Virus record (IMG/VR): IMGVR_UViG_2563366956_000015
Location: 1-35,129 of that record
Length of the DNA stretch: 35,129 nt
Reading direction: 5' to 3' (one strand)
Source: a virus
Lineage: Duplodnaviria > Heunggongvirae > Uroviricota > Caudoviricetes
This document shows positions 14,787 through 35,129 of the stretch, piece after piece. The number at the start of each line of letters is the position of its first letter. The stretch's first letter is position 1. A program made the translations under genes and the position numbers. Below the pieces are notes generated by a model, which ran no database searches, was not told the DNA's origin, and saw only the letters and a program-made list of their open reading frames with translations.

Positions 14787-14836
14787 CTCCTGTCATACAG
14801 GCTACCCGCGCGCGTCCCGTCTGCGCTTCCTGTTCC

Positions 14837-19868: not shown

Positions 19869-19877
19869 GGAGAAGTC

Positions 19878-20360
19878 ATGCTGAAAATGAACCGTCTGCG
19901 CGAAGCCCTCACCGCCTCATCCCGGTGGTGTCGCGCGAATCCGGAAAAACTCACCGTGTTTGCAGAAAGCGGAAGTATTGAGACCACGGGTGAAACCCCG
20001 ACGTTTGTCTACCGTTACACGCTCGTGGCCTTCGTCATGGATTTTCCGGGACACATCGACGAGCTGATGCTGCCGCTGATTGTCTGGCTCATGCACAACC
20101 AGCCGGATTTGCTGCTCAACCCGGAGAAAAACAAGGACGTTAAGTTTTCCGTTGCCGTCAATGACGACGACAGCACCGACCTGTTACTGGAAATTCCCGT
20201 GCGCGAGCGCGTGAAAGTCTGCCGCAATGAACAGGGTGAACTGTATCCGGTGCACCTGCCGGAACCCCGCCCGCCTGCCGCACTGACAGGAGCCTGGGGA
20301 GAGCTGATTGTTGAGGATGTGACCTTTAAGGATTTGACGGATGAACACGACGACGCATGA
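19878..20360 (+). CDS. R: tail completion protein R
   Basis: 160 aa; synteny. Confidence 0.75.
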   Translation: MLKMNRLREALTASSRWCRANPEKLTVFAESGSIETTGETPTFVYRYTLVAFVMDFPGHIDELMLPLIVWLMHNQPDLLLNPEKNKDVKFSVAVNDDDSTDLLLEIPVRERVKVCRNEQGELYPVHLPEPRPPAALTGAWGELIVEDVTFKDLTDEHDDA

Positions 20361-20979
20361 CCCGGACGCGGTTTTCCGCGACATCCTGAACGGACTTTCC
20401 ACCGCCGGACGTGCACGCACGGCGAGGGCTGTCGGGCAGGCGCTGCGCCAGAGCCAGCAGGCGCGTATCCGTGCGCAGAAGAACGCAGACGGTTCGCCGT
20501 ATCCGGCACGAAAACAGCAGGTGATGCACACCCGCCGTGAAGTGAAGTTTGTCTGGAACGGCGAGGTCCGCACGCTGCGCCAGTGGGGGCACAAGCGTTA
20601 CCGGAAAGGCCGCGCCATTATCGGGCGCGACCCTGACCGTGGCGGCGCGCTGAGGACGTTTTACCGCGATGATATTGAGCGATACATCGCTGTATCGTCC
20701 ATGTCTGCCCGCCAGACCAGCAAAAAAAGCACGCCGATGTTCGCGCGTCTTCGCACATACCGCTGGTTAAAAATGCGCTCAGATGCGGAAGGCGCTGTTG
20801 TGGGCTTCGATGGCCTGGCGGCACGGATTGCCCGCGTGCATCAGGCAGGGTTACGCGACGAGGTGGCTCCGGGCGTGATGACCACCTACCCGGTGCGTGA
20901 ACTGCTGGGTATAACCGCAGCCGACGAACGCCTGGTATATGACACGATTATCCGCTCCCTGAGGAGTGCGGCACGATGA
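20341..20979 (+). CDS. S: tail completion/virion morphogenesis protein S
   Basis: Synteny; 212 aa, longer than P2 S. Confidence 0.7.
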   Translation: MNTTTHDPDAVFRDILNGLSTAGRARTARAVGQALRQSQQARIRAQKNADGSPYPARKQQVMHTRREVKFVWNGEVRTLRQWGHKRYRKGRAIIGRDPDRGGALRTFYRDDIERYIAVSSMSARQTSKKSTPMFARLRTYRWLKMRSDAEGAVVGFDGLAARIARVHQAGLRDEVAPGVMTTYPVRELLGITAADERLVYDTIIRSLRSAAR

Positions 20980-21557
20980 CAGCGGAAATCATGCGACTGC
21001 TTGCAAATATCATCCGCACGGGCGTGATTTTTGCCGTGGACGAAACAACGTGGCGCGTTCGCGTGCGCAGCGGAGAGCTGGAAACCGACTGGCTGCGCTG
21101 GAACACACCACGCGCGGGCGCGTTCAGCGTCTGGCTGCCGCCTGCCGTGGGCGAACAGGTCATGATTGCCTGCATCGGTGGCGACCCCGCGACCGCGTCC
21201 GTCATCGGCAGTCTCTGGAGCAGCGAACATCCGGCGCCCGGCAGCAGCCTGACGGAAATCGTGGTTACAGCGCCTGACGGCGCGGTGTTCCGCTACGATG
21301 CGGACGCTGGCGCACTGAGCGCCAGCGGAATCAAAACTGCCACCATTCAGGCCGGAACAGGCGTGACGCTGGATACCCCCACCGTCACCTGCACAAACCA
21401 TCTGAAGACGACAACGATTGAGGTGACAGAAGGCGGAACCATGAGTGGCAGTATCTCGCACAGCGGCGGTGATTTCACCTCAAACGGTGTGACGCTGCAC
21501 ACGCACAAACACAGTGGCGTGAAGAGCGGCGGTGACAGCACAGGAGGCCCGCAGTGA
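20976..21557 (+). CDS. V: baseplate assembly protein V (central spike)
   Basis: 193 aa; synteny; ATGA-type overlaps with flanking genes. Confidence 0.8.
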   Translation: MTAEIMRLLANIIRTGVIFAVDETTWRVRVRSGELETDWLRWNTPRAGAFSVWLPPAVGEQVMIACIGGDPATASVIGSLWSSEHPAPGSSLTEIVVTAPDGAVFRYDADAGALSASGIKTATIQAGTGVTLDTPTVTCTNHLKTTTIEVTEGGTMSGSISHSGGDFTSNGVTLHTHKHSGVKSGGDSTGGPQ

Positions 21558-21919
21558 GTGCCCGTTTTCTGGGGATGAACCCCGAGGCCACCGGCACGCT
21601 CAGCGACACGGACCATCTGTGGAACAGCGTGAGGGATATTCTGTTAACACCGCTCGCCAGCCGGGTGATGCGCCGGGAATACGGCAGCCTGCTGCCGGAT
21701 TTGCTGGATGCACCGATGAATGCCACCACGCGCCTTCAGTGCATGAGCGCCGTGGTGATTGCCCTGACACAGTGGGAGCCACGCATCGCCCTGAATGCCG
21801 TTGACATTCAGTGGGAGGCGGGCGGAAAAGCCGTTATCACCCTCACCGGCACACTGACAGAAAGCCTGGAAACCGTACAGAACACACTGACACTCAGGAG
21901 CGACAATGCCAGCCGTTGA
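21554..21919 (+). CDS. W: baseplate protein W
   Basis: 121 aa; synteny. Confidence 0.8.
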   Translation: MSARFLGMNPEATGTLSDTDHLWNSVRDILLTPLASRVMRREYGSLLPDLLDAPMNATTRLQCMSAVVIALTQWEPRIALNAVDIQWEAGGKAVITLTGTLTESLETVQNTLTLRSDNASR

Positions 21920-22802
21920 CCTGTCGGAACTGCCGACACCACAGATTATTGAAACGCCGGATTTTGAAGTCATCCTGGCGGAAGTGAAAGAAGACATCAT
22001 TACGTCATTTCCACAGACACAGCAGGCTGCCATCCGGTCAGCCATGGCGCTGGAGTCCGAACCGCTCACGGTCATTGCCCAGGCTTTCGCGCTGCGTGAA
22101 CTGCTGCTTCGCCAGCGCATTAATGAGGGCGCAGCGGCCTGTATGCTGAGCCATTCCACAGGTGATGACCTGGACAACCTCGCTGCCAACATGAACACCG
22201 CGCGGCTGGTCATCACACCGGCCACGGACACCACGGAGGCCGTCATGGAAAGCGACTCCGCCCTGCGGCTGCGTGCGCAGTCTGCATTTGATGGCCTCAG
22301 CGTGGCCGGTCCCACCGGGGCGTATGAATATTTTGCCCGCAGTGCCAGCGGTCAGGTGGCGGACGCGCGCGCAACCAGCCCCGCACCGGCGGAAGTGGTG
22401 GTGGCAGTGTTGTCCACAGAAGGCGACGGCACGGCGACCGAAGAACTCCTGACAACGGTCAGAAATGCGCTGAATGCCGAAGACGTTCGCCCGGTCGGTG
22501 ACCGTCTGACGGTGCAGAGCGCAGAAATCATCCGGTATCAGATTGATGCCCGGCTTTACTTTTATCCGGGGCCGGAGTCGGAACCCATCCTGAATGCCGC
22601 CAGAAACAATCTGGAAACCTGGCTTGCCGAACAGGGCAAAATCGGTCGCGATGTCGCGCTCTCCGCCATCATGGCCGCACTGCATGTTCAGGGCGTTCAG
22701 CGCGTGGAACTGACCAGCCCCGCACAGAATATTGTTATCAGTGATGTGCAGTCAGCGTACTGCACATCGTTCACGGTCAGCACAGGGGGAACCAATGAGT
22801 GA
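21906..22802 (+). CDS. J: baseplate protein J
   Basis: 298 aa; synteny. Confidence 0.85.
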   Translation: MPAVDLSELPTPQIIETPDFEVILAEVKEDIITSFPQTQQAAIRSAMALESEPLTVIAQAFALRELLLRQRINEGAAACMLSHSTGDDLDNLAANMNTARLVITPATDTTEAVMESDSALRLRAQSAFDGLSVAGPTGAYEYFARSASGQVADARATSPAPAEVVVAVLSTEGDGTATEELLTTVRNALNAEDVRPVGDRLTVQSAEIIRYQIDARLYFYPGPESEPILNAARNNLETWLAEQGKIGRDVALSAIMAALHVQGVQRVELTSPAQNIVISDVQSAYCTSFTVSTGGTNE

Positions 22803-23571
22803 ACCGTCACTTCTCCCCCCTTCAGCCAGCGATTTCATGCGCTGCGTGGAGCGGGGAACCGCCCGGTTGTCAGCATTACCTGTCAGCCTTAACCAGCTCT
22901 GGGATCCTGACACCTGCCCGGCAGCCCTGCTGCCTTATCTGGCGTGGGCGCTGTCCGTGGACAGGTGGGATCGTGACTGGACGGAAGAAACAAAGCGCCA
23001 GGTGATCCGTGATGCCTGGGCAATCCACCGCCATAAGGGAACCATCAGCGCCATCAGGCGTGTGGTTGAACCCTTTGGCTATGTCATTAACGTGACGGAG
23101 TGGTGGCAGAACGGCGACCCGCGCGGCACGTTCCGCATTGATATTGGCGTGCAGGACGCGGGTATCACAGAGGAAACGTACTCCGAGCTGACACGACTGA
23201 TCGACGATGCCCGTCCGGTCAGCCGCCACCTTGCCTCGCTGAACATTATGCTGGATACGCAGGGAGTCGCACGTGTGTTTTCCGGCATGCACGACGGCAG
23301 TGAAACAACAATCTGGCCAGCCGCTTCTGCCGGTGTTGAGACTGTTTCGGTGTTCCGGGCATCTCCGGCTTTCTTTGACGGCGACATGCTCACCATTTAC
23401 CCGCCGACACCGTCGGTATCTGTCGATGCGGGGATTGTCATGGGATTACAGGTTACGGGCGATGATGCGGTGACCGTGGAGCCACAGGCGGTGATGCAAC
23501 TGACCGCCACAACCGGAACCCTGACAGCATCAGTGGTATTTCTGGAGGATTCTTTGAGGATTTTTTCATGA
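22795..23571 (+). CDS. I: baseplate/tail formation protein I
   Basis: ORF trimmed to the ATG at 22795, overlapping the J stop; synteny. Confidence 0.75.
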   Translation: MSEPSLLPPSASDFMRCVERGTARLSALPVSLNQLWDPDTCPAALLPYLAWALSVDRWDRDWTEETKRQVIRDAWAIHRHKGTISAIRRVVEPFGYVINVTEWWQNGDPRGTFRIDIGVQDAGITEETYSELTRLIDDARPVSRHLASLNIMLDTQGVARVFSGMHDGSETTIWPAASAGVETVSVFRASPAFFDGDMLTIYPPTPSVSVDAGIVMGLQVTGDDAVTVEPQAVMQLTATTGTLTASVVFLEDSLRIFS

Positions 23572-25349
23572 CTGTAAAATATTTTTCTGTTCTGACTGAC
23601 AAGGGTGCCGCCCGTCTGGCAAAGGCGGTGGCCAGCGGCTCGAAAATATCCATCACCACCATGAAACTGGGGGATGGCGGCGGCAGCCTGCCGGAACCGG
23701 AGGCGTCCATGGAAAATCTGGTGAACACGGTATACAGCGCCCCATTGAATCAACTGAGCATCAGCGCGTCTGATGCCAGCCAGCTTATCGCCGAGATGAT
23801 TATCCCGGAAGATAAAGGGGGGTTCTGGATCCGCGAGATTGGGCTTTTTGACAGCGACGGCGTGATGATTGCCGTGGCGAACTGCCCCGAAACCTACAAG
23901 CCTGTACTCACCGAGGGAAGCGGGCGCACGCAGACGATTCGCATGATTGTTGTGGTTTCCAGTGCTTCGTCTGTCGAACTGAAAGTTGATCCCTCTGTCG
24001 TGCTCGCCACCCGCGCCTATGTTGAAGAATATGTTGCGCAGGAAAAGGAGTCTGTACCGCCGCTGCCTGATGTGTGGATACCGTTTAACGATTCACTGGA
24101 TATGCTTACGGGGTTCGCACCGGGCTATAAAAAAATCACCATTGGTGACGATGTGGTTCAGGTTGCCAGTGATAAACAGGTTAGTTTCAGTCGCGCATCA
24201 ACGGCAACCTATATCAATAAATCCGGTGAACTGAAAATAGCTGAAATTAATGAGCCGCGATTTGAACGCGATGGACTGCTTATTGAAGGGCAAAGAACAA
24301 ACTACATGCTCAATTCGGAAACCCCGGTCAACTGGGGCAAGTCGGTAAATATGGATGTTCACGAAACCGGGACGGACAGTTCTGGTTTTACCTATGGAAA
24401 GTTCGTCTGTAACGATTCTCTGATTGGGCAGTCCCTGCCTGTTAACATGGCATCAGTTGCAGTAACCGGAGCCGTCGATGTTTCAGGCGATAATAAGTGC
24501 GTGACGACATCGTGCAGATTTAAAACTGATCTGGAACTCATGTTAAGGATCAGGTTTGAATCTTACGATGGCAACACATCATCTAACCTTGGATATGCCA
24601 TTGTTAATACGCGATCTTTATCAGTTAAAATCACAGGAGGAGCTGCCGACAGGATCACTGCCCGAGTTAACAAAGATGAGGTTACCGGCTGGATTTTTGC
24701 AGAGGCAACGATTCAGGCAATTGATGAGTCCTACATAACATCGGCAATACAATACACTCCGAAAGAAGGTGGTGTCGTTGAATCAGGAGATTATGTTTTC
24801 CTGTCCACCCCTCAGGTTGAAAATGGCCCCTGCGCATCATCATTTATTATATCGGGTGCAACACCAGCAACACGTGCAAGTGATATTGTGACAGTTCCGG
24901 TTAAGAATAATCTTTATAATCCTCCTTTTACTGTTCTTTGTGAGGTACATAAGAACTGGTATAAAACGCCAAATGCAGCACCGCGTGTTCTTAATACCAG
25001 TGGTCATCAAACTGGAGAGGAAATTATTCTTGGACTCGGTCGTTCGACGGATTACGACGGATTTCCTTATTGCGATATAGGCGGGGCTAACATGCGGGTA
25101 AACGAAAACGCATCACTTGAAAAAATGGTTATAGGGATGCGAGTAAAGTCAGATCAGTCTACATGCTCAGTCAGTAACGGACGGTTATCCGGCGAAACAA
25201 AAACCACATGGTCATATATTCAGAACTCCGCAATTATCCGTATTGGAGGGCGAACGAGTACTGGAGAACGACATCTGTTTGGTCACATTCGTAATTTCCG
25301 CATATGGCATAAAGAATTAAATGACAGGCAATTAAGAGAGGCAATATGA
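23568..25349 (+). CDS. H: tail fibre protein H with a divergent AT-rich C-terminal domain
   Basis: N-terminal ITTMKLGDGGGSLPEPEA...GGFWIREIGLFDSDGVMIAVANCPETYKP matches the conserved P2 H N-terminus as recalled; composition becomes AT-rich from about 24100. Confidence 0.85.
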   Translation: MTVKYFSVLTDKGAARLAKAVASGSKISITTMKLGDGGGSLPEPEASMENLVNTVYSAPLNQLSISASDASQLIAEMIIPEDKGGFWIREIGLFDSDGVMIAVANCPETYKPVLTEGSGRTQTIRMIVVVSSASSVELKVDPSVVLATRAYVEEYVAQEKESVPPLPDVWIPFNDSLDMLTGFAPGYKKITIGDDVVQVASDKQVSFSRASTATYINKSGELKIAEINEPRFERDGLLIEGQRTNYMLNSETPVNWGKSVNMDVHETGTDSSGFTYGKFVCNDSLIGQSLPVNMASVAVTGAVDVSGDNKCVTTSCRFKTDLELMLRIRFESYDGNTSSNLGYAIVNTRSLSVKITGGAADRITARVNKDEVTGWIFAEATIQAIDESYITSAIQYTPKEGGVVESGDYVFLSTPQVENGPCASSFIISGATPATRASDIVTVPVKNNLYNPPFTVLCEVHKNWYKTPNAAPRVLNTSGHQTGEEIILGLGRSTDYDGFPYCDIGGANMRVNENASLEKMVIGMRVKSDQSTCSVSNGRLSGETKTTWSYIQNSAIIRIGGRTSTGERHLFGHIRNFRIWHKELNDRQLREAI

Positions 25350-25624
25350 AAGATTTGACTTTGAAGTTTCATGACAAACAGCAGTTTAAAGCCCTCCTGT
25401 CATCTCTTGGCTGGGAGGAAAATGAAGACCTCCAGAACAAACTGTTAGTCGATGAAATTGGTTTCACCTATACAGAAACAGGGGAAAATGAAGAGGGAGA
25501 ACCTGTCTGTATCCGGAATGACGGTTATTTTGTCAACATTCGTATTCTTGATGATACGTTTGATGTTTCTGTGTTCTCTGATTATGTGGTGGAGCTGGAA
25601 GCACCGCTTCGGGAATGGAGCTGA
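25346..25624 (+). CDS. small acidic protein downstream of the tail fibre (possible chaperone, not canonical Tfa)
   Basis: ATGA overlap with the H stop; GAGAGG RBS; 92 aa. Confidence 0.5.
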   Translation: MKDLTLKFHDKQQFKALLSSLGWEENEDLQNKLLVDEIGFTYTETGENEEGEPVCIRNDGYFVNIRILDDTFDVSVFSDYVVELEAPLREWS

Positions 25625-25633
25625 AGGGAGGGA

Positions 25634-25930
25634 GTGATGGATATAACGCCTGTCCTTCATGCACTTTGTGCCGTGGCTGCGCAGGTACTGGCTGGCATTC
25701 TTACGGGAAACTGGGTTTACGGAGCGATAGCCGGTTGCTCGTTCTTCATTGCGCGTGAACACACCCAGGCAGAATATCGCTGGATTGAAAAATTCGGGAA
25801 AGGGAAACGAATTAACATGCCCTGGTGGGGTGGTTTTGATCCGCGCGTGTGGGATGCCGGAAGCCTGATGGATTTTGCTGCACCAGTGGCAATATGCCTG
25901 TTGTTCTGGCTGCTGGTTAGTTACTGGTGA
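25634..25930 (+). CDS. small integral membrane protein (98 aa)
   Basis: Strong AGGGAGGGAG RBS; hydrophobic segments at both ends. Confidence 0.5.
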   Translation: MMDITPVLHALCAVAAQVLAGILTGNWVYGAIAGCSFFIAREHTQAEYRWIEKFGKGKRINMPWWGGFDPRVWDAGSLMDFAAPVAICLLFWLLVSYW

Positions 25931-26020
25931 AATCACGCCACCCCCCCCCGTCATCTGTGTGGGGTGGTGGCGTCAGGTTAAGGGAATGCGATCAACGACG
26001 AAGATTTGTCTTTGATAGTG

Positions 26021-26125
26021 TTCAGTAAGCCCCCCCTGCAGGAGCAGACTGGAGTTTCTCCCACATATCCTCATCACACCATTGAAAGCCTGCAGGAAAC
26101 TCAATTCTTTCAGGCAGCTTCAGAA
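26021..26125 (-). pseudogene. remnant of a tail protein U-like 3' end (direct repeat of the 3' end of the intact U gene)
   Basis: About 100 nt closely matching 27146-27250 in the same orientation; encodes a ...QxCDEDMxExLQSAxAG... fragment on the minus strand. Confidence 0.4.
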
Positions 26126-26289
26126 AATTATAAATTTCACCAGATACAATATGTAAGAGATTAATATGATGCACTCAAGAACATAAAACAGGCAATATTA
26201 ACTCCGGGACTGTATGTGTTAGAAAAAGAAGCACAAAGTAATCTGGTTTCCTCTGAAGGCGATAAAACTGACATAACGAAGCAGGGACC

Positions 26290-26735
26290 TTTCGACCAGA
26301 TAAAATCAAAATGATTTACAACGAAATAATATTATTGTCACCATTACCAGAGAGGCATCAACACTTAATCATGTCGGTTTTAGTGTTGTTAATACTTCTG
26401 ATATTAACGCTAACCAACGTGCTGATGACTCAGGTAACTGGATATTTGATGATGAAAATATTGTTCGTCATGTGCTGCCACCTGAAAAGTGGCAGGCTAA
26501 AGCAGAATGACAACGAAATCCCCTGCTGCCGGAGGCAAAAGAGAGGATCAGAATCTGGCAATCTGAGTTATTGCCCGGCACCATCAGCAATGCAGACAAG
26601 GGAAGGTTGGCTACGTGGATTGAATATATTAGGGAACTTCAGCAGTTGACGTTCACTTCCGTGATGAATAAAGATTGTTATAATGCGCTGGTATGGCCTG
26701 AATCTCCATCAAAGGGGACTTTTCAGAACGCATAA
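26290..26735 (+). pseudogene. degenerate, frameshifted tail fibre assembly (tfa-like) gene remnant
   Basis: Three frames each carry protein-like segments; the C-terminal piece ...ATWIEYIRELQQLTFTSVMNKDCYNALVWPESPS resembles the Tfa C-terminal W..Y...L....WP..P pattern. Confidence 0.4.
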
Positions 26736-26779
26736 TATATTTATAATCCCGCACTGTTCTACACATGCAAACATTCTTT

Positions 26780-26804
26780 GCCCGCCCCGTGCGGGCTTTT
26801 TTTT
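26780..26804 (+). terminator. Rho-independent terminator (GCCCGC-cccgt-GCGGGC plus T8)
   Basis: Perfect 6-bp GC stem followed by eight T; just downstream of the tfa-like remnant. Confidence 0.65.
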
Positions 26805-26967
26805 GCCGCAAAGACACAGTAATAAACGGGATTGTAATCAGAGCAACAAAAACACAAGAAACATTTTCATTAATGATAATGACAATTAAAAATATTGCAT
26901 TGAATGAATACCGTTCAATATAATCCCCCTGCAAGCAGAAAAATTAAATCTTCACACAATGCATGCC

Positions 26968-26990
26968 GCCCTCTTTGTGAGGGCTTTTTT
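26968..26990 (+). terminator. Rho-independent terminator (GCCCTC-tttgt-GAGGGC plus T-run)
   Basis: Perfect 6-bp stem followed by TTTTTT. Confidence 0.6.
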
Positions 26991-27083
26991 ATTTCCCGAA
27001 TATCACCATTGCCTTCATCGGGCGATTTATATATAGTCAGAATGTATTGACAACATTTGCTTCTTTTCCATGAAGGCAATAAG

Positions 27084-27112
27084 GGAGTGCTTTTTACACT
27101 CCCTCTTTTTTT
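27084..27112 (+). terminator. Rho-independent terminator (GGGAGTG hairpin plus T-run), possibly bidirectional at the 3' end of U
   Basis: GGGAGTG-cttttta-CACTCCC followed by TCTTTTTTT; the stop codon of minus-strand U is adjacent. Confidence 0.55.
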
Positions 27113-27114
27113 AT

Positions 27115-27573
27115 TCAGAATGCCGCTATCGCCATTTTGTCTTTAAGCGTGTTCAGTAAATCACCTGCAGAAGCAGACTGAAGCCTCTCCCGCATATCCT
27201 CATCACACCGCTGAAAGCTGATGGAGAACTCAATCTTTTTTGCCTTCCCGTAGCGATCCAGTTCGGAGCGGGTGGTCTGTAATCCCGTAATCACGTACAT
27301 TCCGTAAATCTGCCCCGTACCATCAATCAGCGGCCAGGGACATCCGGTGTAGGCCTGGGTGTTCAGCAGTGTCAGCGACACCTCACCGCCGGTAATTTCC
27401 GGGTACAGCAGACCGGACAGCGTGATCTGGTCGTCACCTGCGCCAATATACTGCCAGGCCGCAGAACGGTTGATTCGCTCATTTTTCACATGCCGCCACG
27501 TTTTGTTTTGTTGAATCTGTTGATGCGGCAGCGTTTTCAGTTCAAACACAAACATGCCAAAAATCATCATCAT
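27115..27573 (-). CDS. U: tail protein U (P2 gpU-like)
   Basis: MMMIFGMFVFELKTLPHQQIQQNKTWRHV resembles the P2 U N-terminus as recalled; follows T on the same strand. Confidence 0.8.
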   Translation of the reverse strand: MMMIFGMFVFELKTLPHQQIQQNKTWRHVKNERINRSAAWQYIGAGDDQITLSGLLYPEITGGEVSLTLLNTQAYTGCPWPLIDGTGQIYGMYVITGLQTTRSELDRYGKAKKIEFSISFQRCDEDMRERLQSASAGDLLNTLKDKMAIAAF

Positions 27574-27586
27574 AATTGCGTCTCCT

Positions 27587-30500
27587 TTAGTCCCTGTCAC
27601 GGAAGCTGTTCATGCCTGTACGCACCTGTCTGCGCATCTCTTCGCGGACAGCCTCGCCAACCAGTTTTGCCAGTTCACGCGGATTCTGCGTGTTGACGTT
27701 GTGCAGATGCACGTGTATCTCACCGGAAAATACCGCAGCCTGCGTTTGTGGCGCGGTTTCTTTTTTGACGGACTCCGGTCGCAGCGGTGGACGGATAACC
27801 TCCGCAACAGGAACAGATAAAGCCACATCTCCACCCGGACTGTTCACAGCCTCACGCACACGCTGAATACCGGCAACCAGCTCTGTATTTGCCTCGTTGT
27901 GCTGCGGCAGCGTGGACACCTGACGGGCCACGCTCACCACTGGCGCAGGAACATTCACTGCTGGCATCAGAACGTTCACCACAGGTGGAGGCGATACCGT
28001 CTCTCCACCCGGACTGTTCACCGCCTCATGCACACGCTGAATACCGGCAACCAGTTCTGTATTTGCCTCGTTGTGCTGCGGCAGCGTGGATACCTGACGC
28101 GCCACACTCACCACTGGCGCAGGAATATTCACGACCGGAACGGGTGAAGCAGTCTGTCTTCCGGTGAGTTTCTGCCAGAGCGTTGTCAGCGCATCCGCCA
28201 GTCCTCCGCCCGCCGATACCGCCTGCACTGTCCGGATAACCTGCGGTGCTTTCCACTCGCCGTGAATGATTTCGGGTCCGGGCAGGTTTTTGAAAACAAT
28301 ATCGCCGGGACCAGTACGTTTTTTGGTTTCCTCAAGCAGCCCGCCGGTGTTGCTGGCGGTTTTCTGTATCCCCTGCCGGAACCATGCCTCATCCAGCGGG
28401 GATTTACTACCGGGTTTGCCGACCGGATTGTCTGACGTTCCCTTCACCTCTCCGGGAACCGCAGGGGCAGGTATTGCGGGTTTATTGTCACCGTTGTTTT
28501 CCGCTGCATCTGATGACCACGACCATGTTTTCTGCACCATTTTTTTCTGTGCAGGATCCCACTCCCACGCAACCGGCGCTTTTTGTGTGGCCTGTTTTGC
28601 GGCGCTCTCCTGGAGTTTTTGCGTCTCCTTCTGCGCTTCCCTGATGCCATCCGGGATAACACCCAGCCACTTCAGCACTGTGCCGAGGCCATCAAGAAGC
28701 AGTGTCAGCGGCCCCAGCACAATGTTCTGAATGACCCACCCCAGCGTTTTCCCGAACGACTCCCCGGCGCTGGTGCATTTGTCGAGTGTCTCTTTTGAGG
28801 CGTTTGCAGGTTCAAGCAGGCGGGTGAACCATTCCCACACGGCTTTGATGCCATCGCCAATCAGCCCGAACACCGGAGCCAGCGACGCAAAGGCTTCCCG
28901 CAGCGGTTGCAGCGCCTCCCACACTCCGGCAAAAAAGCCGGAAAAAAACGCACTGATCTGATCCCAGTATTTCCACACCAGAACCGCGCCGCCCACCAGG
29001 GCGGCAACAATCAGCCCGACCGGGCTGAACAGCGCCCCCAGTGCACCACCCAGTACCGACACCGCCCCCGTGACCAGCCCCCACAGCGCAGGCAGCCCCG
29101 TCAGGCGCAGTGCCATCGCAGACACAAGCCGGACAGCACCACCAATGCCGCCGCCCCCCGTCAGCAGCCCCAGCCCCAGTTGCAGTTTTGCCAGCGGCCC
29201 CGCAATCAGCCCGAGCGTCAGTGACAGCGCACCGAACGTGGAAGACAGCGCCAGAACACTCCCGCCCGCCAGTACCAGCACCCTGACCAGCGCCTGATGC
29301 TCTCCGACCCATTCGCGCATCCGGGTCACCCACGCGCTCACCGTCTGAACCAGCCCGCGCAAATCCTCGGTCACAGTACCGAAGATGTCCGTGCGTAGCC
29401 CTGAGAACGCACCACTCAGCGCCTGAATATCGCCGGAGAGATTACCGCGCAGCGTCTGCCCCATGCGGTCTGCCACGCCGGTGACATCGCCCAGATTGTC
29501 ACGAACATCAGCCAGCGCCCTCAGGAACTGCGGGATCTGGTCAACGGAAAGGTCTTCAACGGGGGTGCCGAATAACGCAATGGCCGTGTTCGCCCGCTCT
29601 GCCGGGTCACGGATGGCCAGCAGTGCACGGGCGGTCACCTGCATCGCCTGGCGTGCGGTACTGCCCCCCTGAGCAATGGCAGCAGACACCCGTTCGGCAT
29701 TCAGGCCGAGTGTCTCATACGCTGAAACACTGGATTTCGACATATCCGAACCACGGATACTGAACTCCTTCACGGCATCGCCGGTTTTGTCCAGCGCAAA
29801 CTTGCCCTGCTTTGCCATCTCAACCAGCAGACTCATTGTCTCGCTGCCGGTGAAGCCCATGTTGCGGAAGTGGGTGGAATACTCATGCAGAATTTCCGGC
29901 AGTTCATCGCGCATTTCAGCGGACATGCGCTGCATCCCTGCCGTCATCAGGTTAGTAGCCTCGTCACTGCTGGCGGCCAGCCCGTTCTTCATCATGATGG
30001 CAGCGGCCTGAATGCTCTGCGGCACATCAACACCAAAGACGGTCCGCATATCCAGCGCACGACGGCTGATGCGCTCCAGTTCCCGGTCGCCGGTGTCGCC
30101 CAGCGCGCCGAGCGTACTGCGTACCGCACTCACAGCCTCCGCAGCACCGGCAAAATCAGCGAGACCGTCAGCCTGTATGTTACGGATGATGTGGGTGTAA
30201 CGTGCGCCATCCTGTGGGGCTTCCCCTGAACCGGCAGCAATGACCGCGCCGTGCTGTTCGGACTCCATCGCCGGAACCATCATGCGCTGCGCCGCATACA
30301 GGCCGCCTGTACCCGCCGCCATCGCCACAGCCCCTGTGTTGCGCAGTTTTTCCGCCTGTGCCTTCGCGGCCTCATAGCGGCTCTGTGCCTGCGTCACGCG
30401 AGCCAGTGCCTGCCGTTCGCGCTCGAGCTGCTCGTTGTACTGCTGTGTACGGCGAACGGCACTTTCGATGGTGCGGCTGCTGCCGGAAAGCAGAATGCCG

Positions 30501-30907
30501 TGTTTGCGCATTTCGCCTGCCGCCGCCTGGAGTTTTTCGCGCTCGCGCGTGCGCAGCTCGTTCAGGCGCTCAAGACGTGCAGACAGCGCCGTCATCATCT
30601 CCCGCTGCTTTTTGGAGAGAGTGTTACCGTCCTGCTCTGCCTTTCGCAGCCCGGCGAGCCTCTGCTCCGCGCGGGCAATCTGTTCGCGGTATTTACTGAG
30701 ATTTCCGGCGGCACGATCGAACACCTTCGACTGTCTGTCGAGCGCCTGTATGTTGTTCTGCGTCTTCTGAAGGGATTCAGTGAGAGCGCCCACCTGACGG
30801 CGGGCGTTTTCGGTCGGGCGTGTCAGCCGGTCAATTGCGCCAAAGCTGACACGAATATCAAGGGATTTCACTGTTGCGGACTCCGCTACGTTGCGCCGCC
30901 CGCTCAC
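27587..30907 (-). CDS. T: tail tape measure protein (P2 gpT-like), 1106 aa with an internal tandem repeat
   Basis: Long coiled-coil-rich N-terminal region, Gly/Ala-rich TM-like central region; position between E and U. Confidence 0.9.
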   Translation of the reverse strand: MSGRRNVAESATVKSLDIRVSFGAIDRLTRPTENARRQVGALTESLQKTQNNIQALDRQSKVFDRAAGNLSKYREQIARAEQRLAGLRKAEQDGNTLSKKQREMMTALSARLERLNELRTREREKLQAAAGEMRKHGILLSGSSRTIESAVRRTQQYNEQLERERQALARVTQAQSRYEAAKAQAEKLRNTGAVAMAAGTGGLYAAQRMMVPAMESEQHGAVIAAGSGEAPQDGARYTHIIRNIQADGLADFAGAAEAVSAVRSTLGALGDTGDRELERISRRALDMRTVFGVDVPQSIQAAAIMMKNGLAASSDEATNLMTAGMQRMSAEMRDELPEILHEYSTHFRNMGFTGSETMSLLVEMAKQGKFALDKTGDAVKEFSIRGSDMSKSSVSAYETLGLNAERVSAAIAQGGSTARQAMQVTARALLAIRDPAERANTAIALFGTPVEDLSVDQIPQFLRALADVRDNLGDVTGVADRMGQTLRGNLSGDIQALSGAFSGLRTDIFGTVTEDLRGLVQTVSAWVTRMREWVGEHQALVRVLVLAGGSVLALSSTFGALSLTLGLIAGPLAKLQLGLGLLTGGGGIGGAVRLVSAMALRLTGLPALWGLVTGAVSVLGGALGALFSPVGLIVAALVGGAVLVWKYWDQISAFFSGFFAGVWEALQPLREAFASLAPVFGLIGDGIKAVWEWFTRLLEPANASKETLDKCTSAGESFGKTLGWVIQNIVLGPLTLLLDGLGTVLKWLGVIPDGIREAQKETQKLQESAAKQATQKAPVAWEWDPAQKKMVQKTWSWSSDAAENNGDNKPAIPAPAVPGEVKGTSDNPVGKPGSKSPLDEAWFRQGIQKTASNTGGLLEETKKRTGPGDIVFKNLPGPEIIHGEWKAPQVIRTVQAVSAGGGLADALTTLWQKLTGRQTASPVPVVNIPAPVVSVARQVSTLPQHNEANTELVAGIQRVHEAVNSPGGETVSPPPVVNVLMPAVNVPAPVVSVARQVSTLPQHNEANTELVAGIQRVREAVNSPGGDVALSVPVAEVIRPPLRPESVKKETAPQTQAAVFSGEIHVHLHNVNTQNPRELAKLVGEAVREEMRRQVRTGMNSFRDRD
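27845..28190. repeat. two tandem copies of a repeat of about 174 bp inside the tape measure gene
   Basis: Near-identical DNA blocks encode the repeated peptide ...APVVSVARQVSTLPQHNEANTELVAGIQRV(H/R)EAVNSPGG...; also visible as repeated peptides in the plus-strand shadow ORF 27889..28167. Confidence 0.7.
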
Positions 30908-31438
30908 GCCAGCTCATCACCTCGACGAGAGGCATTGAGAATATCTCGCCGGGCGACCAGTTAAACACGACTGCTATATCAGCGACCAGTTCTTCAACGT
31001 TGTCGAACTTCGCCAGCGTGATTACGCTTCCATCACCGCCACGGACGGTTTCGCAGACTCCGTGGGAGCAAAAAAATTCGCAGCCATAGTCGCCAGCGCC
31101 ACGAAATCACCGGTGGACAGTGACTGAATTTCTGCCAGTTTCAGGCGTGGTGCGGTCACGCGCGAAAGCAGCGTCATCATCGGGTCCGTTTTGAGGTTCA
31201 GCACCTCAATCAGAGACAGCCCGCGCAGTGAACCTGCCTGACGGATTTCCTCGCCAATCTCCACGTAGTCAATAACGCGTTCGCCACGCACCACCGGGCA
31301 GGATAACTTCACCCCCGTTTTTTCCTCTGCGGCTTCTGCGTTATCTACGGTGTTTTCCTCTGCCACATCGATGTTTTCAGTGGTGGTGTCACCTGCGACG
31401 ATTTCGCTGTTCATGATGTCATCTTTCTTTGCTGCCAT
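30858..31438 (-). CDS. predicted E+E' product from a programmed -1 frameshift at a T7G slippery run
   Basis: Minus-strand GAATTTTTTTGC near 31068-31079; the -1 frame continues as ...DGSVITLAKFDNVEELVADIAVVFNWSPGEIFSMPLVEVMSWRERAA... to a stop at 30858-30860, overlapping the T start. Confidence 0.5.
31022..31438 (-). CDS. E: tail assembly chaperone E (P2 gpE-like)
   Basis: GGAG RBS; acidic N-terminus; sits between FII and T. Confidence 0.75.
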   Translation of the reverse strand: MAAKKDDIMNSEIVAGDTTTENIDVAEENTVDNAEAAEEKTGVKLSCPVVRGERVIDYVEIGEEIRQAGSLRGLSLIEVLNLKTDPMMTLLSRVTAPRLKLAEIQSLSTGDFVALATMAANFFAPTESAKPSVAVMEA

Positions 31439-31483
31439 TTTCTTTCTCCTGTGGCGGCACGGCGTGCCGCCCTGTTAATACTG

Positions 31484-31999
31484 TCAGTTCAGGCCAAGTG
31501 CCGAACTCACGCGGTCGCCAAAGACGTTCTGGCCGTCTTTTTTGTAGATGAAGTTCAGCAGGTCGATTTCTGTCACATCGCTGTCATCCACCGACTCCTT
31601 GTAGTAGGTGTTTTTGACGGCGAAGGTGTACTGCGTGGTGTCGCCCTGTTTGGTTTCGCCACGGTCGATTTCCGTGATGCGTCCGCGCATTTCCACCTCA
31701 AGGATCTGACTTTCCTCACCATCGGTGAACAGCTCACCCACAAAGCGCAGCGCCACTTCGTTAATGTCAGTGGCGTATTCCTGGAGCAGCTCTTTTTCAA
31801 CCCCACCGGTGGTGAACGAGGCATCCAGTGCGCCGTCATCCAGTCCGAGGTCAATATGCACCGCACCCAGCATCCCGCCGCCGCGATAGGCTTCGGTTTT
31901 TCGGGTCAGTTTGGGCAGACTGACGCCTGTCACTGTGCCGATTTTGTTTTTGCCGTTCACAAACAGCGTGAACTGGCGAACGTAACGTGGTACAGCCAT
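31484..31999 (-). CDS. FII: tail tube protein (P2 gpFII-like)
   Basis: 171 aa; follows the sheath gene. Confidence 0.85.
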   Translation of the reverse strand: MAVPRYVRQFTLFVNGKNKIGTVTGVSLPKLTRKTEAYRGGGMLGAVHIDLGLDDGALDASFTTGGVEKELLQEYATDINEVALRFVGELFTDGEESQILEVEMRGRITEIDRGETKQGDTTQYTFAVKNTYYKESVDDSDVTEIDLLNFIYKKDGQNVFGDRVSSALGLN

Positions 32000-33184
32000 T
32001 TACGCACCTCCCAGCGTTGCAAAAGCGGAGTCGAAATACTCATCCGTGAACGTCTGGTACAGCGTCAGGTCTTCCATCGGCGGCACTGGCGTGTACTTAT
32101 AACGGATGCGCACGCGCCCCTGACGTAAATCCGTCGTGCCGTTGTCCAGCACGTCATACCAGCACTCCGCACCGATGAGTTTTCCGGCGGTGACCAGGGC
32201 ATTGAGTTTTGCGCGGATGGCGCTAATCACGTCCTTCACGTTCGCCGGGGTCAGCGGTTCGTCAATGGTTTCGAACTGCGCTTCGGCGATGGTATCTGCC
32301 AGAATCTGCGCTGTGCGCGTGTACACCTCAAAGATGTAGTCGCTGGTTTCGGCAGTACGGTTCCCCCAGAAGCGGAAGCCGTTACGGCGAATAATCGTGG
32401 TGATTTCCTTGTTGTTCAGGTTATTCGCATCACTGTCTTCGGCCTGCAACGACCAGAACACCTGCTGCGACATACCGAGCACATTTTTCAGCGCCACGTT
32501 GGACAGTGACTTGTGCCAGCCCTGTTCACTGTCAATCCGCGCACGCAGCCCGCACGCATACGCTGCCGCCGGGAATACCTCATTCTCACCGCTCACGGGG
32601 TTGTAAGCGATGAAGTCGGGCCACAGCAGCATCAGCTCACGCGCGGAGAACTTCGCGCGGTAAGTGATTGCCTTCGCCATCGTGTCGCATCCGTTACATC
32701 CGGCATACACAAAGGCGCGGAGCTTGTCCGCAATGACGCACAGGGCGGATGTGACTGCTTCGGTATCAAGGCCGGGAGCCGCCAGAATACGCGGGCGGTA
32801 ACCAATGCTCTCGTCCTGTTCGGCAACCAGCAGGGCATACATGCCCGTATAGCTGCCGTCATCCTGTGAGCCACCGATGACAAGCTGGTCCTGTGTTTTT
32901 TCGCCCTCTTCTTCGGCTTCTGCCACACGCACCACGATGACCTTCGGGCTGGTCTGGTCGGAAATCGCCTTGAGCGTTTTGTACAGCGTGCCTGTTGTGC
33001 CTGCCTTACCCAGCACATTCGCCACGCGGGTGATCAATACGGGCTTGTTTAACGGGAACGCGTCGCTGTCTGCATCGTCCGCCGTGGCCACGATACCGAT
33101 GACACTGGAATCAATGTCATTAATCGCGGTCACGAGGTCGGTGTTTTCTTTGACGCGTGCACCGTGAAAGCGTGTTTCACTCAT
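32000..33184 (-). CDS. FI: contractile tail sheath protein (P2 gpFI-like)
   Basis: ORF trimmed to the internal ATG (MSETRFHGARVKEN...); about 394 aa. Confidence 0.85.
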   Translation of the reverse strand: MSETRFHGARVKENTDLVTAINDIDSSVIGIVATADDADSDAFPLNKPVLITRVANVLGKAGTTGTLYKTLKAISDQTSPKVIVVRVAEAEEEGEKTQDQLVIGGSQDDGSYTGMYALLVAEQDESIGYRPRILAAPGLDTEAVTSALCVIADKLRAFVYAGCNGCDTMAKAITYRAKFSARELMLLWPDFIAYNPVSGENEVFPAAAYACGLRARIDSEQGWHKSLSNVALKNVLGMSQQVFWSLQAEDSDANNLNNKEITTIIRRNGFRFWGNRTAETSDYIFEVYTRTAQILADTIAEAQFETIDEPLTPANVKDVISAIRAKLNALVTAGKLIGAECWYDVLDNGTTDLRQGRVRIRYKYTPVPPMEDLTLYQTFTDEYFDSAFATLGGA

Positions 33185-33250
33185 GAGCACCTCCTGGTGT
33201 TTTGTGTGGCGACATCCTCCCGAAAAACAGCCCCGCATTCACGCGCTGCC

Positions 33251-33274
33251 TGTTCTCGCCGCTCTCCGACAACA
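33251..33274 (+). promoter_or_regulatory. late-promoter activator-site-like dyad in the FI/D divergent region
   Basis: TGTTCTCGCCGCTCTCCGACAACA, nearly identical to the motif at 14837-14860. Confidence 0.45.
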
Positions 33275-33346
33275 TACGCAGGATTACAGCGTCTCCGTGC
33301 GCGTGGGAGTATTTCGCCGTACGAAGACACAGACGGAGAAATTGCG

Positions 33347-34462
33347 ATGAACCCTGCGGACGTAAGCGGATACCTGAACGGTCTGTCAGAGTGCGTGAAG
33401 ATCCCTGATTTTTCCATCACGGTTAAGGGCACGGAAAACGCGGCGCTGACCCGACGGGTCATCTCGCTGGCGATGACCGACAACCGGGGATTTGAGGCGG
33501 ACCAGTTAACCCTCACGATTGACGACTGCGACGGCGGTGTGCAACTCCCGAAGCGCGGACAGACGCTGGGTCTGGCGCTGGGCTGGAAAGGTGAGGCGCT
33601 GACAGACAAGGGAACCTTCATCGTTGACGAGGTGACACATGAGGGACCACCGGACAGGCTCACCATCACGGCCAGCAGCGCAGACTTCCGGCAGGAGTTC
33701 AACGTGAAGCGTGAAGTGTCCTGGCATGACGTGACGGTGGGACAGGTTGTTTCTGCCATCGCGTACCGCTACGGACTGAAGGCACAAATCAGCGCCTCGC
33801 TGGCAGAGGTGGAAATCGACCACGCCGACCAGACGGAGGAAAGTGACATCTCGTTTCTCACGCGCATGGCGGACATGCTGGGAGCCATCGCCACCGTCAA
33901 AAACGGCGCCCTGCTTTTCATCGTGCCCGGACAGGGGGTGAGCGCCAGCGGAAAGCCGCTGCCCTCATTCGCCATCACCCGCAGCAGCGGCGACAGCCAT
34001 CACTTCCGCATTGCAGACCGGCAGGCGTACACGGGGGTACGCGCTTACTGGCTGGACCTGGACTATGGCAAAAAGAAAAAAGTCAGCGTGACAAAACGTG
34101 GTTCTGCCCAAAAAACAAAAAAGGAGAAAAGCAGCAGCCGCGAGGGGGATTACATGGAGGGCGCAGACGGCAATGTGTACGTCATGCGTAAAACCTTCAA
34201 AAACGAGGAGGCCGCACGCCGTGCAGCGGCGGCAAAATGGCAGCAGCTACAGCGCGGCGCGGCTGAGTTCTCCATCACGCTGGCACGCGGTCGCCCCGAC
34301 CTGTACCCCGAAATGCGCGGCACGGTATCCGGTTTCAAGAGTGACATCGACGCGGAGGACTGGGTACTGGCGAAGGTGGAGCACAACATCGACGACAGCG
34401 GCTTCACCACGCGGCTTGAGCTGGAATTAAAAATTCCTGAATGGATAGCGAAACAGGAATAA
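33347..34462 (+). CDS. D: tail protein D (P2 gpD-like, late control/tail gene)
   Basis: ORF trimmed to the ATG at 33347 (MNPADVSGYLNG...); 371 aa; precedes ogr. Confidence 0.85.
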   Translation: MNPADVSGYLNGLSECVKIPDFSITVKGTENAALTRRVISLAMTDNRGFEADQLTLTIDDCDGGVQLPKRGQTLGLALGWKGEALTDKGTFIVDEVTHEGPPDRLTITASSADFRQEFNVKREVSWHDVTVGQVVSAIAYRYGLKAQISASLAEVEIDHADQTEESDISFLTRMADMLGAIATVKNGALLFIVPGQGVSASGKPLPSFAITRSSGDSHHFRIADRQAYTGVRAYWLDLDYGKKKKVSVTKRGSAQKTKKEKSSSREGDYMEGADGNVYVMRKTFKNEEAARRAAAAKWQQLQRGAAEFSITLARGRPDLYPEMRGTVSGFKSDIDAEDWVLAKVEHNIDDSGFTTRLELELKIPEWIAKQE

Positions 34463-34513
34463 CAGGAATAAAATCACGGCGATTCACCTTCATGAAAAAA
34501 GGAGGTCTCCGTC

Positions 34514-34771
34514 ATGTCTTTTCCGTGTCCTTTTTGTGGTGCTAGCACGCGCACCCGCACAAGCCGCGCCGCGAATGATTCGCGAACTGTCCGGCAGAAA
34601 CTCTACCAGTGCAACAACCCCGAATGCAGTCTCTCCTTCTCGACGCTGGAGAGCTTCGAAAAACTCACCGTAAAGCGCAGCGGTGGTACTTCACCGGATA
34701 TTCCGTGGCAGAGCCTGCCAGCGTCACACCGTGGTGATGCGCAGATGTCGCTGCCACTTCCGGCAATGTGA
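34514..34771 (+). CDS. ogr: Ogr/Delta-family zinc-finger late gene activator
   Basis: CPFCGASTRTRTSR...YQCNNPECSLSF Cys4 pattern typical of Ogr; GGAGG RBS; terminal position as in P2. Confidence 0.85.
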   Translation: MSFPCPFCGASTRTRTSRAANDSRTVRQKLYQCNNPECSLSFSTLESFEKLTVKRSGGTSPDIPWQSLPASHRGDAQMSLPLPAM

Positions 34772-34888
34772 TCGCCTGTATCTGTTTTTTGACTCTGGAA
34801 TTTTATTTGGAGAATTTACTCAGGAAACGGTAAATTACGCGCGGGTGCCTTTCGGCTGATGGTCGGAGGGAAAACCTGAAGGCCGGAT

Positions 34889-35122
34889 GTGGAAAGGCCC
34901 CGGAAAACATTTCTGTTTAACCGAGGCCCTGACCATCTAACCTTAGCAAGTGATAGGTTAGCGCCTCCCCGAAAAAGGAGCAAGCGCTATGTCGCAAAAA
35001 TCGCTTACGGCCATCACGTTCTGCGTGACGGCAATCCTCATCATCTGGATGCTGCACGGTTCGCTGTGCGAAATACGGATGAGCTTCTGGGGAGCGGAGT
35101 TTGCGGCGTTCTTACAGTGTAA
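34889..35122 (+). CDS. mok-like overlapping reading frame of the hok locus (putative)
   Basis: 77-aa ORF overlapping the hok-like gene in a different frame, as in hok/mok/sok loci; likely GTG start. Confidence 0.3.
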   Translation: MERPRKTFLFNRGPDHLTLASDRLAPPRKRSKRYVAKIAYGHHVLRDGNPHHLDAARFAVRNTDELLGSGVCGVLTV

Positions 35123-35129
35123 GCAGTAA
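34989..35129 (+). CDS. hok: Hok/Gef-family type I toxin (46 aa)
   Basis: AAGGAG RBS 9 nt upstream of the ATG; MSQKSLTAITFCVTAILIIWMLHGSLCEIR...EFAAF has the hydrophobic TM segment and SLCEIR motif of Hok/Gef peptides. Too short for the ORF track. Confidence 0.7.
   Translation: MSQKSLTAITFCVTAILIIWMLHGSLCEIRMSFWGAEFAAFLQCKQ

Follow-up and report, generated by a model that had tools for sequence, protein, structure and literature searches.

In phage P2, the tail genes FI to U form one co-directional unit with D and ogr, in which D is transcribed from the promoter PF and overlaps U. P2 late promoters carry a TGT-N12-ACA-like dyad centred near -55, and the PP/PO pair is bidirectional, with one site shared by both promoters. 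The tail block of Salmonella phage Fels-2 (Felsduovirus) is co-linear as well, with a DNA invertase followed by FI ... U, D and ogr; as in P88, the tail block of this phage is adjoined by H, tfa, an invertible tfa'/H' segment and the invertase. In P88 and its relatives (Xuanwuvirus, Peduoviridae; including Citrobacter phage PhiSM), in contrast, J-I-H are encoded on the plus strand, U-T-E'-E-FII-FI on the minus strand and D-ogr again on the plus strand; in P88, the invertible H'/tfa' segment and DNA invertase lie between tfa and U. These phages look like a Fels-2-type layout with the FI-U block flipped. P88 forms plaques, with a burst size of ∼65 and 137-nm contractile tails (PMC5285337), and PhiSM is plaque-forming and lysogenises K-12 (PMC6456863).

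The window analyzed here, i.e. the whole stretch of 35,129 nucleotides, has a gene order identical to that of P88 in this region. The minus-strand block U, T, E/E', FII, FI spans positions 27115-33184 and is flanked on the plus strand by H (23568-25349) and D-ogr (33347-34771), strand assignments made in the original prediction and confirmed by Pfam and PHROG identities. The internal order FI-FII-E-T-U, which is also that of P2, is preserved on the minus strand, with Pfam/PHROG matches for every gene. The canonical P2 arrangement, in which FI..U is co-directional with H and D-ogr and D is co-transcribed with U, was not found; instead, FI and D point away from each other, and D-ogr forms a unit of its own. 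The original prediction was right that P2 is itself co-linear for FI..U-D-ogr, and, in evolutionary terms, its reading as a block inverted relative to P2 describes the layout fairly; it erred in counting Z/fun among the co-directional genes, since P2 fun(Z) lies on the opposite strand.

The first gene of the inverted block encodes the tail sheath protein gpFI (32000-33184, minus strand; listed ORF 32000-33238; Pfam PF04984, PF22671 and PF17482), which shares 85% amino acid identity with P88 FI and whose refined ATG start at 33184 is preceded by AGGAGG. It is followed by the tail tube gene FII (31484-31999, minus strand; PF04985, E=2e-45) and by gene E (31022-31438, minus strand; phrog_103, tail protein). 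A predicted -1 frameshift would extend gpE into a 193-aa E+E' product (30858-31438, minus strand; PF06528 Phage_P2_GpE, E=7e-14): a slippery T7G is present at 31076-31070, from which the -1 frame is open down to 30858, and P2, which shares the E/E' frameshift on a T-run, has GGTTTTTTG at the equivalent place. The tape measure protein gpT (27587-30907, minus strand; PF10145) is 1106 aa long from the listed GTG (PGAP places the start slightly upstream), compared with 935 aa in P88. A repeat search revealed an internal two-copy duplication of 162 nt in its gene (27797-27958 and 27971-28132), although Tandem Repeats Finder reported no repeat in T. The last gene of the block, U (27115-27573, minus strand; listed ORF 27115-27600; PF06995 GpU, E=9e-40), was assigned its start according to the PGAP call in the SCU-172 prophage, and its product is 80% identical in amino acid sequence to P88 gpU. 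On the plus strand, the baseplate hub/late control gene D (33347-34462; listed ORF 33164-34462; PF05954 GPD) starts with the ATG at 33347, and its SCU-172 counterpart is a 1116-bp CDS in PGAP. It is followed by an ogr-like gene (34514-34771, plus strand; PF04606 Ogr_Delta, E=2e-13), so that the cognate zinc-finger late activator (Ogr/Delta type, as in P2) is encoded by the phage itself. Full-length reading frames were found for U, T, E, FII, FI, D and ogr as well as for the E+E' fusion.

Overall, P2 shares this gene set, with nucleotide similarity to P2 over only ∼4% of the window length. In the early region (2339-9811), identity to P88_4B11 is 92-95%, whereas the late genes of the window and of P88-like phages share only ∼69-75% nucleotide identity, and gpD ∼73% identity. 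Against P88_4B11, 43% of the window aligns and the identity over the window length is 35%, both lower bounds, because 30.6 kb of the 37.1-kb record was compared, with the head-gene end left out. By ICTV convention, genus-level nucleotide similarity is ∼70% over the whole genome. In place of the P88 H'/tfa'-invertase region, the window carries a fibre tip of lambdoid type with two small ORFs, followed by a fragment of U and a tfa that has decayed. Enterobacter phage phiT5282H, which belongs to another ICTV genus (Novemvirus) and infects another host genus, also has U-T-E-FII-FI on the minus strand and D on the plus strand (gpD 71% and FI 79% identical to the window); it differs in having an intact tfa directly upstream of U, no invertase and no U fragment.

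The synteny comparison suggested in the original prediction revealed the same inverted layout in P88-like phages and their relatives. H (plus), U, T, E, FII and FI (all minus), then D and ogr (both plus) is the arrangement of P88, P88_4B11 and 520873 (Xuanwuvirus) and of phiT5282H, and it extends to a second ICTV genus. It was present in all 80 IMG/VR viral loci kept as gpD relatives (71-93% identity), and the opposite orientation was found in none of the more than 80 relatives of the clade. FI and D are also adjacent and on opposite strands in Klebsiella phage Kp4880-3. Independent complete genomes with the inverted order include SCU-172 (99.8% identity), TUM9803, KFu014 and strain 135; in SCU-172, both block junctions are contiguous, with 98.9-99.8% identity. 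Among the 5426 complete E. coli genomes searched, 1358 carry a contiguous P88-type FI/D junction and 1571 a P2-type U-D junction. The co-linear order was observed in P2, Fels-2 and every sampled phage with ≤53% gpD identity in which the two genes could both be placed (Cartapus, HQ103, pro483, GCS667, VB-YPM-18, vB_EcoM-12474II, ECO1230-10, a Wolbachia WO record and clone 2F_1). Fels-2 had been expected to carry the inversion, an expectation abandoned on finding its block co-linear.

We are confident that the window represents a P2-family (Peduoviridae) E. coli prophage of the P88-like clade, with an old, fixed FI-U inversion, a functional layout, a promoter deduced between FI and D, and a later exchange of the tail fibre region. 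The inversion is regarded as old, fixed and clade-marking because P2 and Fels-2 keep the co-linear order. The FI-FII-E/E'-T-U operon would have been inverted once, long ago, relative to the order of P2, 186 and Fels-2, and then fixed. Parsimony suggests that this happened in the P88-like clade and not in an ancestor shared by all other phages compared; more speculatively, a neighbouring DNA invertase may have produced the inversion by acting on a quasi-site. The inverted layout is the standard, working arrangement of a group of P2-related phages that is very common in E. coli, and not all Peduoviridae follow the P2 gene order. The observation serves mostly as a calibration point: as roughly one in four complete E. 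coli genomes has the P88-type junction, an inverted tail block in a P2-like prophage is no reason to flag an artefact or a defect.

The region to the left of the block has a separate history. The tail fibre protein gpH (23568-25349, plus strand) is a chimera, in which a P2-type collar domain (residues 1-164; tail-collar Pfam match PF12571, aa 1-149) is joined to a lambdoid side-tail-fibre tip (residues 148-593; phrog_1419). Positions 24054-25919 share ∼80% nucleotide identity with lambdoid phages, and the fibre cassette with its lambdoid-type tip (∼23250-26114) has a lower GC content. The two small ORFs downstream (92 and 98 aa; 25346-25930, plus strand; phrog_1361 and phrog_1443, both of unknown function) are likewise found downstream of the side tail fibre gene of the matching lambdoid phages, where no tfa occurs among the features listed under the matches. 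Next comes U', the 3' end of a second gpU allele (∼25979-26114, minus strand), detected as direct repeats of 27136-27239 with 79-88% identity. By tblastn and translation, it extends from U residue ∼111 to the stop codon at ∼80% nucleotide identity, with one frameshift and one stop. This scar is shared with SCU-172, TUM9803 and two other genomes. A donor with an intact U was sought in 88 loci and in E. coli genomes and, same-scar genomes aside, no copy closer than ∼80-81% was found. In KFu014 the second small ORF lies near U and the U' fragment is absent. The last bases of the old H gene (∼26115-26166) are followed by a full-length but decayed tfa (gpG-like) pseudogene (∼26167-26735, plus strand) with in-frame stops and frameshifts, which is 43% identical to P2 gpG and P88 Tfa over residues 36-156 and has an intact counterpart in E. 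coli strain 135. Positions 26105-26300 match the H/tfa boundaries of other E. coli prophages. An Rfam search of the AT-rich segment 26740-27110 gave nothing credible.

The duplicated U 3' end and the decayed tfa noted in the original prediction are thus real, but their attribution to the inversion is wrong; relatives with the inversion and an intact tfa carry no such scars (locus L088). Instead, we infer that they record a later swap of the fibre cassette, unrelated to the inversion. The end of gpI, H and the two small ORFs would have come from another phage of the same layout, whose DNA ran into its own U gene and was fused by an illegitimate join close to the 3' end of the resident H; the resident tfa would thereby have become redundant. 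The U' fragment would then indicate that fibre cassettes are exchanged between same-layout phages by one homologous and one illegitimate join.

Three other explanations of the tail block were considered, two of which, an assembly error and a tail-defective prophage, had been offered in the original prediction next to a real lineage-specific rearrangement, the option that stood; the clade-wide order and the intact genes speak against the other two. A recent, private rearrangement that left a tail-defective, cryptic prophage is unlikely. The tfa pseudogene and the nearby U fragment would suit such a prophage, as would the PGAP annotation, which marks gpI as partial in the SCU-172 prophage, nearly identical to this one, and both H and gpI as partial in TUM9803. 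However, the inversion is clade-wide rather than private, the block genes, D and ogr are complete, and phages of the same order form plaques and have contractile tails, as described above for P88 and PhiSM (PMC5285337; PMC6456863). Loss of tfa is to be expected, as the lambdoid fibre tip occurs with the same two small ORFs and no listed tfa, and gpI of the window has an uninterrupted ORF that contains the entire Tail_P2_I Pfam domain. The viability of this particular prophage is left unproven because PGAP flags the SCU-172 gpI as partial.

It is very improbable that the whole tail operon is a programmed invertible segment of the Gin/Cin/Hin type. P88-like relatives do encode a DNA invertase immediately beside the U end of the block, and the Fels-2 invertase adjoins FI in the co-linear order, but in relatives the enzyme acts on the small H'/tfa' segment. 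No invertase homologue was found in the window (the best tblastn matches of the P88 invertase, E=0.012, lie outside the region), nor were inverted repeats at the block ends, the best pair being 26 nt long, 73% identical and misplaced, and the clade showed a single orientation throughout its more than 80 loci. A mis-orientation of the FI-U block in this assembly, in favour of which nothing speaks but what the P2 order would lead one to expect beforehand, can practically be dismissed, given the identical layout in independent complete chromosomes, phage isolates and 80/80 viral contigs, the contiguous passage of SCU-172 across both junctions and the lack of long inverted repeats flanking the block that could mislead an assembler.

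The refined starts of FI and D leave a divergent spacer of 162 bp between them (33185-33346). From a dyad and -10-like hexamers, this spacer is predicted to be a bidirectional, Ogr-dependent late promoter. It contains a single copy of an Ogr-type dyad, TCT-N12-ACA (33254-33271), and -10-like elements on both sides, GAGGAT on the minus strand (33220-33215) and TGnGAGTAT on the plus strand (33304-33312). The divergent FI/D spacer of P88-like phages (∼154-163 bp) has the same dyad. The longer, 22-nt pattern GTTCT-N12-ACAAC occurs exactly twice in the 35-kb window, once in each of its two divergent late spacers, FI-D and P-O (14838-14859), and had zero matches in shuffled sequences. In the left half-site, TCT takes the place of TGT, both here and in P88-type spacers, i.e. 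one mismatch to TGT-N12-ACA; the TCT-type sites were found by comparing the P-O with the FI-D spacer. Exact TGT-N12-ACA had five matches in the window, fewer than expected by chance and none in the late spacers.

The dyad was present in all 52 distinct FI-D spacers. In 42 of these spacers, representing four sequence types, the dyad is flanked on either side by a GAnnAT hexamer that starts 43-44 nt from its centre; the other ten do not have an exact GAnnAT on one or both sides, and some of these have AATGAT at that position. The dyad and flanking GAnnAT were kept where the remaining spacer sequence had diverged, although shared ancestry may account for part of the conservation among these related sequences. 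Applied to P2, the same regular expression picks out the annotated activator sites, whose dyad centres and mapped starts are 55.5-57 nt apart, and the hexamer-dyad geometry of the FI-D spacer matches that of the annotated PP/PO and PF sites of P2. From the -10-like hexamers, transcription is predicted to start ∼55 nt from the dyad in both directions, at ∼33208 on the minus strand (FI-U) and ∼33319 on the plus strand (D-ogr); these starts and the dependence on Ogr are deduced from sequence.

Through the inversion, the FI promoter would have come to lie next to D in divergent orientation, and the spacer may now act as a compact bidirectional late promoter, with one Ogr-type dyad serving both directions. 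On balance, we lean towards the view that the inversion which defines the clade gave rise to a second bidirectional late promoter, in which one symmetric Ogr-type site drives the FI-U operon and a new D-ogr unit. Neither the inversion nor an FI-D promoter was found described for P88-like phages in the open literature. A symmetric activator site makes inversion of an operon cheap, because one site can serve both directions, and this may be the reason that the rearrangement could be tolerated and reach fixation. If the prediction is true, the late activator gene would be under its own positive control from the FI-D site, unlike in P2, where ogr has its own promoter.

The window corresponds, in essence, to a single complete P2-family prophage from Escherichia coli. 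The SCU-172 chromosome is 99.8% identical to the window over 25300-27700, and its prophage ends adjoining ihfA/pheT. Genes were called from six-frame ORFs and Pfam matches, and starts were refined by direct reading of the sequence. The tail-collar fibre gene H (23568-25349), gpD (ORF 33164-34462) and an Ogr/Delta zinc finger (34514-34771) are encoded on the plus strand, and gpU (27115-27600), the tape measure T (27587-30907), the tube FII (31484-31999) and the sheath FI (ORF 32000-33238) on the minus strand. E (31022-31438, minus strand) had no match in the Pfam search and was recognised by its match to phrog_103. The refined FI start is the ATG at 33184, preceded by AGGAGG, and that of D is the ATG at 33347. 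The block of tail genes from FI to U therefore has the strands and coordinates given in the original prediction. In the annotated P2 record FI, FII, E/E', T, U, D and ogr are co-directional, as the original prediction stated, whereas fun(Z), placed in the same series, is not. The element is a member of the P2-type contractile-tail module and works like one, without the canonical P2 arrangement.

All genes of the block are intact. The terminal part of E reads ...AAT TTT TTT GCT..., and a predicted -1 slip on its T7G run (31076-31070) would enter a frame that is open as far as 30858; the predicted E+E' frameshift product is 193 aa long and carries PF06528. The E/E' frameshift site of P2, GGTTTTTTG, occupies the equivalent relative position. 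The length of the tape measure ranges from 935 aa in P88 through 1106 aa in the window to 1154 aa in the SCU-172 prophage (99.8% identical), which suggests variable tail length. Near its C-terminal end T contains a 162-nt internal duplication (27797-27958 and 27971-28132, copies 86% identical).

The same gene order was found throughout the P88-like relatives. Megablast of 23500-35129 against phage records gave matches continuous across the FI|D junction in four phages, namely Escherichia phages P88, P88_4B11 and PhiR44_2 and Citrobacter phage PhiSM. In the annotations of P88 and P88_4B11, H and tfa lie on one strand, U, T, E', E, FII and FI on the opposite one, and D and an ogr-like regulator on the first strand again; phage 520873 (Xuanwuvirus) and Enterobacter phage phiT5282H (Novemvirus) are annotated with the same order and strands. 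We also fetched 80 IMG/VR contigs encoding close gpD relatives (71-93% identity to the gpD of the window) and used tblastn to place J, I, H, U, T, E, FII, FI, D and ogr on every contig. In all 80, U, T, E, FII and FI were on the minus strand and D and ogr on the plus strand, while P2 and Fels-2, run as controls with the same script, were co-linear, in agreement with the Fels-2 annotation. gpD and FI were also used as tblastn queries on 50,697 phage records, and the strands of both genes were obtained for a sample of these. FI and D were adjacent and divergent in phiT5282H and Klebsiella phage Kp4880-3 (gpD 68-71% identical). At gpD identities of ≤53% they were co-directional and ∼5 kb apart in all sampled records (Cartapus, HQ103, pro483, GCS667, VB-YPM-18, vB_EcoM-12474II, ECO1230-10, a Wolbachia WO record and clone 2F_1). 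The window shares this arrangement with the P88-like clade (Xuanwuvirus and Novemvirus). A 901-bp probe for the P88 FI/D junction was contiguous in 1358 of 5426 complete E. coli genomes, and an equivalent probe for the P2 U-D junction was present in 1571; the "inverted" order is therefore about as frequent in E. coli as the textbook one. The layout is already known, since it is plainly visible in deposited, annotated genomes; our literature search found no paper commenting on the inversion or on an FI-D promoter of P88-like phages.

These results confirm the inversion and support its proposed interpretation in part: of the three explanations offered originally, a lineage-specific rearrangement is real. 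The inverted order recurs in many independent assemblies, which excludes an assembly error. A prophage with a tail defect due to the block is contradicted by phages of this layout that are viable. P88, induced from E. coli K88, forms clear plaques with a burst size of ∼65, and its virions have icosahedral heads and contractile tails of ∼137 nm (PMC5285337); PhiSM is also plaque-forming and can lysogenise K-12 strains (PMC6456863). The layout is therefore compatible with normal tail assembly, which, together with the intact genes of the window, removes the tail-defective reading as regards the block itself.

An invertible element was also considered. In P88-like phages a DNA invertase gene directly adjoins U, and it serves a small tfa'/H' segment. 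A search across the window revealed no invertase homologue, no inverted repeats were found at the block ends, and none of the clade relatives among the 80 IMG/VR contigs has the block in the opposite orientation. The block is therefore an ancient inversion that has become fixed, and not a switch. Fels-2 has the order H, tfa, tfa', H', invertase, FI...U, D, and P88 the order H, tfa, tfa', H', invertase, U...FI, D; by this comparison one breakpoint lies immediately upstream of the promoter of FI and the other where U meets D.

In the annotated P2 record the F operon ends with D, which overlaps U, and the inversion would have left D needing a promoter of its own. The 162-bp FI-D spacer (33185-33346) was compared with the other divergent late spacer of the window. 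Both contain CCTGTTCT-N6-TCTCCGACAACA, which lies at 14835-14860 in the P-O spacer and at 33249-33274 in the FI-D spacer; with up to three mismatches allowed, these were the only two matches in the window, and shuffled sequences gave none. The core GTT[GC]T-N12-ACAAC is likewise confined to these two spacers in the window. Its inner motif, TCT-N12-ACA, is one mismatch from TGT-N12-ACA, the dyad bound by the late activators of P2 and P4. As a control, this regular expression was run on P2, where it picked out the annotated activator sites of PP/PO (3063-3080, centre 3071.5, mapped starts 3016 and 3127) and PF (17561-17578, centre 17569.5, start 17626-17628). Alignment of the FI-D spacers from the window and 86 loci yielded 52 distinct sequences. 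The dyad was present in all 52 although the spacer is heavily diverged, with ACAA invariant and a perfect GTTGT-N12-ACAAC in several. GAnnAT hexamers lay on both sides, starting 43-44 nt from the dyad centre, in 42/52 spacers of four sequence types; those of the window are GAGGAT (33220-33215, minus strand) and TGnGAGTAT (33304-33312, plus strand), and P2 PF has GAAAAT at the equivalent place relative to its dyad. If transcription started ∼7 nt past each hexamer, the single dyad would sit ∼55 nt upstream of both starts, the geometry of P2 PP/PO, where one dyad serves both. From the shared dyad, its conservation and this P2-like geometry we propose, with confidence slightly better than even, a shared-site bidirectional late promoter placing D-ogr under Ogr control. 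Ogr-dependent late transcription would then run leftwards through FI-U and rightwards through D-ogr from one spacer. If true, this would be of modest interest.

Both scars reported at the left junction, between H and U, are real. The 3' end of U is duplicated in direct orientation (26005-26110 vs 27136-27239, 79-88% identity). By translation, the extra copy (∼25979-26114) starts near U residue 111, reaches its own stop codon and is damaged by a single frameshift, within a G-run, and by one stop. It lies just past a strong hairpin (-24.6 kcal/mol), itself 3' of the second of two small plus-strand ORFs of unknown function (25346-25930) that match phrog_1361 (92 aa) and phrog_1443 (98 aa, hydrophobic). 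Beyond it, ∼26130-26735 holds the final part of an old H gene and then a tfa that is full-length but disrupted by stops and frameshifts; three terminator-like hairpins and the intact U come next.

The scars do not stem from the inversion, with which they had been linked: in E. coli strain 135 the block is inverted, tfa is intact, the terminators and U are the same and there is no U fragment. They are the product of a separate fibre-cassette swap. Homology to the nearest unswapped relatives is lost at ∼23235-23265, within the 3' end of gpI, and restarts at 26433; the DNA between these points is lower in GC (41-49%) than its flanks (58-61%). The H encoded there is chimeric: residues 1-164 are a P2 collar and residues 148-593 a lambdoid side-tail-fibre tip (phrog_1419). 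The phrog_1361 and phrog_1443 ORFs, also encoded there, follow this type of tip in lambdoid phages; they accompany it in the window as they do in many lambdoid and Stx phages, and their products may replace Tfa as fibre accessory proteins. On the simplest reading, the cassette would have recombined in from another phage of the same inverted layout, whose DNA would have run as far as its own U gene, convergent with the small ORFs, and stopped there. The left join would have been homologous and the right one illegitimate, and the resident tfa, unneeded for the new fibre type, would then have decayed. The U-fragment scar recurs, with further tfa deletion, in TUM9803 and two other genomes; the donor was not found among the 88 loci and E. 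coli genomes searched.

The gpI gene (22795-23571, plus strand) encodes 258 aa, where the P88 and P2 proteins have 163-176 aa, and is labelled partial by PGAP in SCU-172. Its Tail_P2_I domain (aa 7-142) is complete and is followed by an extension of ∼85 aa that repeats the usual C-terminal '(Y/F)DG..(I/L)TIYP' motif; the locus may be the left end of the swapped cassette. The stretch from the tfa pseudogene to U (26740-27110) is AT-rich (∼40% GC) and conserved in TUM9803, KFu014 and strain 135. It carries terminator-like hairpins on the plus strand at 26780, 26968 and 27082 and two sigma-70-like promoter matches, and matched no Rfam family; it could give rise to small transcripts or simply insulate the convergent operons.

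In the phage 520873 record (11639-14783), the FI sheath gene is interrupted by an IS100 (IS21-family) insertion, and D and T are annotated in pieces; although listed as a phage species exemplar, it looks like a defective prophage. Compared with P88_4B11, the early/replication genes of the window (2339-9811) are 92-95% identical and the late/structural genes (18112-35129) just 69-75%, and overall similarity amounts to ∼35% of the window length, as measured against 30.6 kb of the 37.1-kb P88_4B11 record. The contrast in identity points to mosaicism and implies recombination between early and late halves of related phages. The early region also contains adjacent plus-strand matches, both at Rfam gathering level, to the isrK Hfq-binding RNA (4677-4751, 64 bits) and C4 antisense RNA (4787-4874, 83 bits), which suggest a P1/P7-style antisense immunity or anti-repressor control module.
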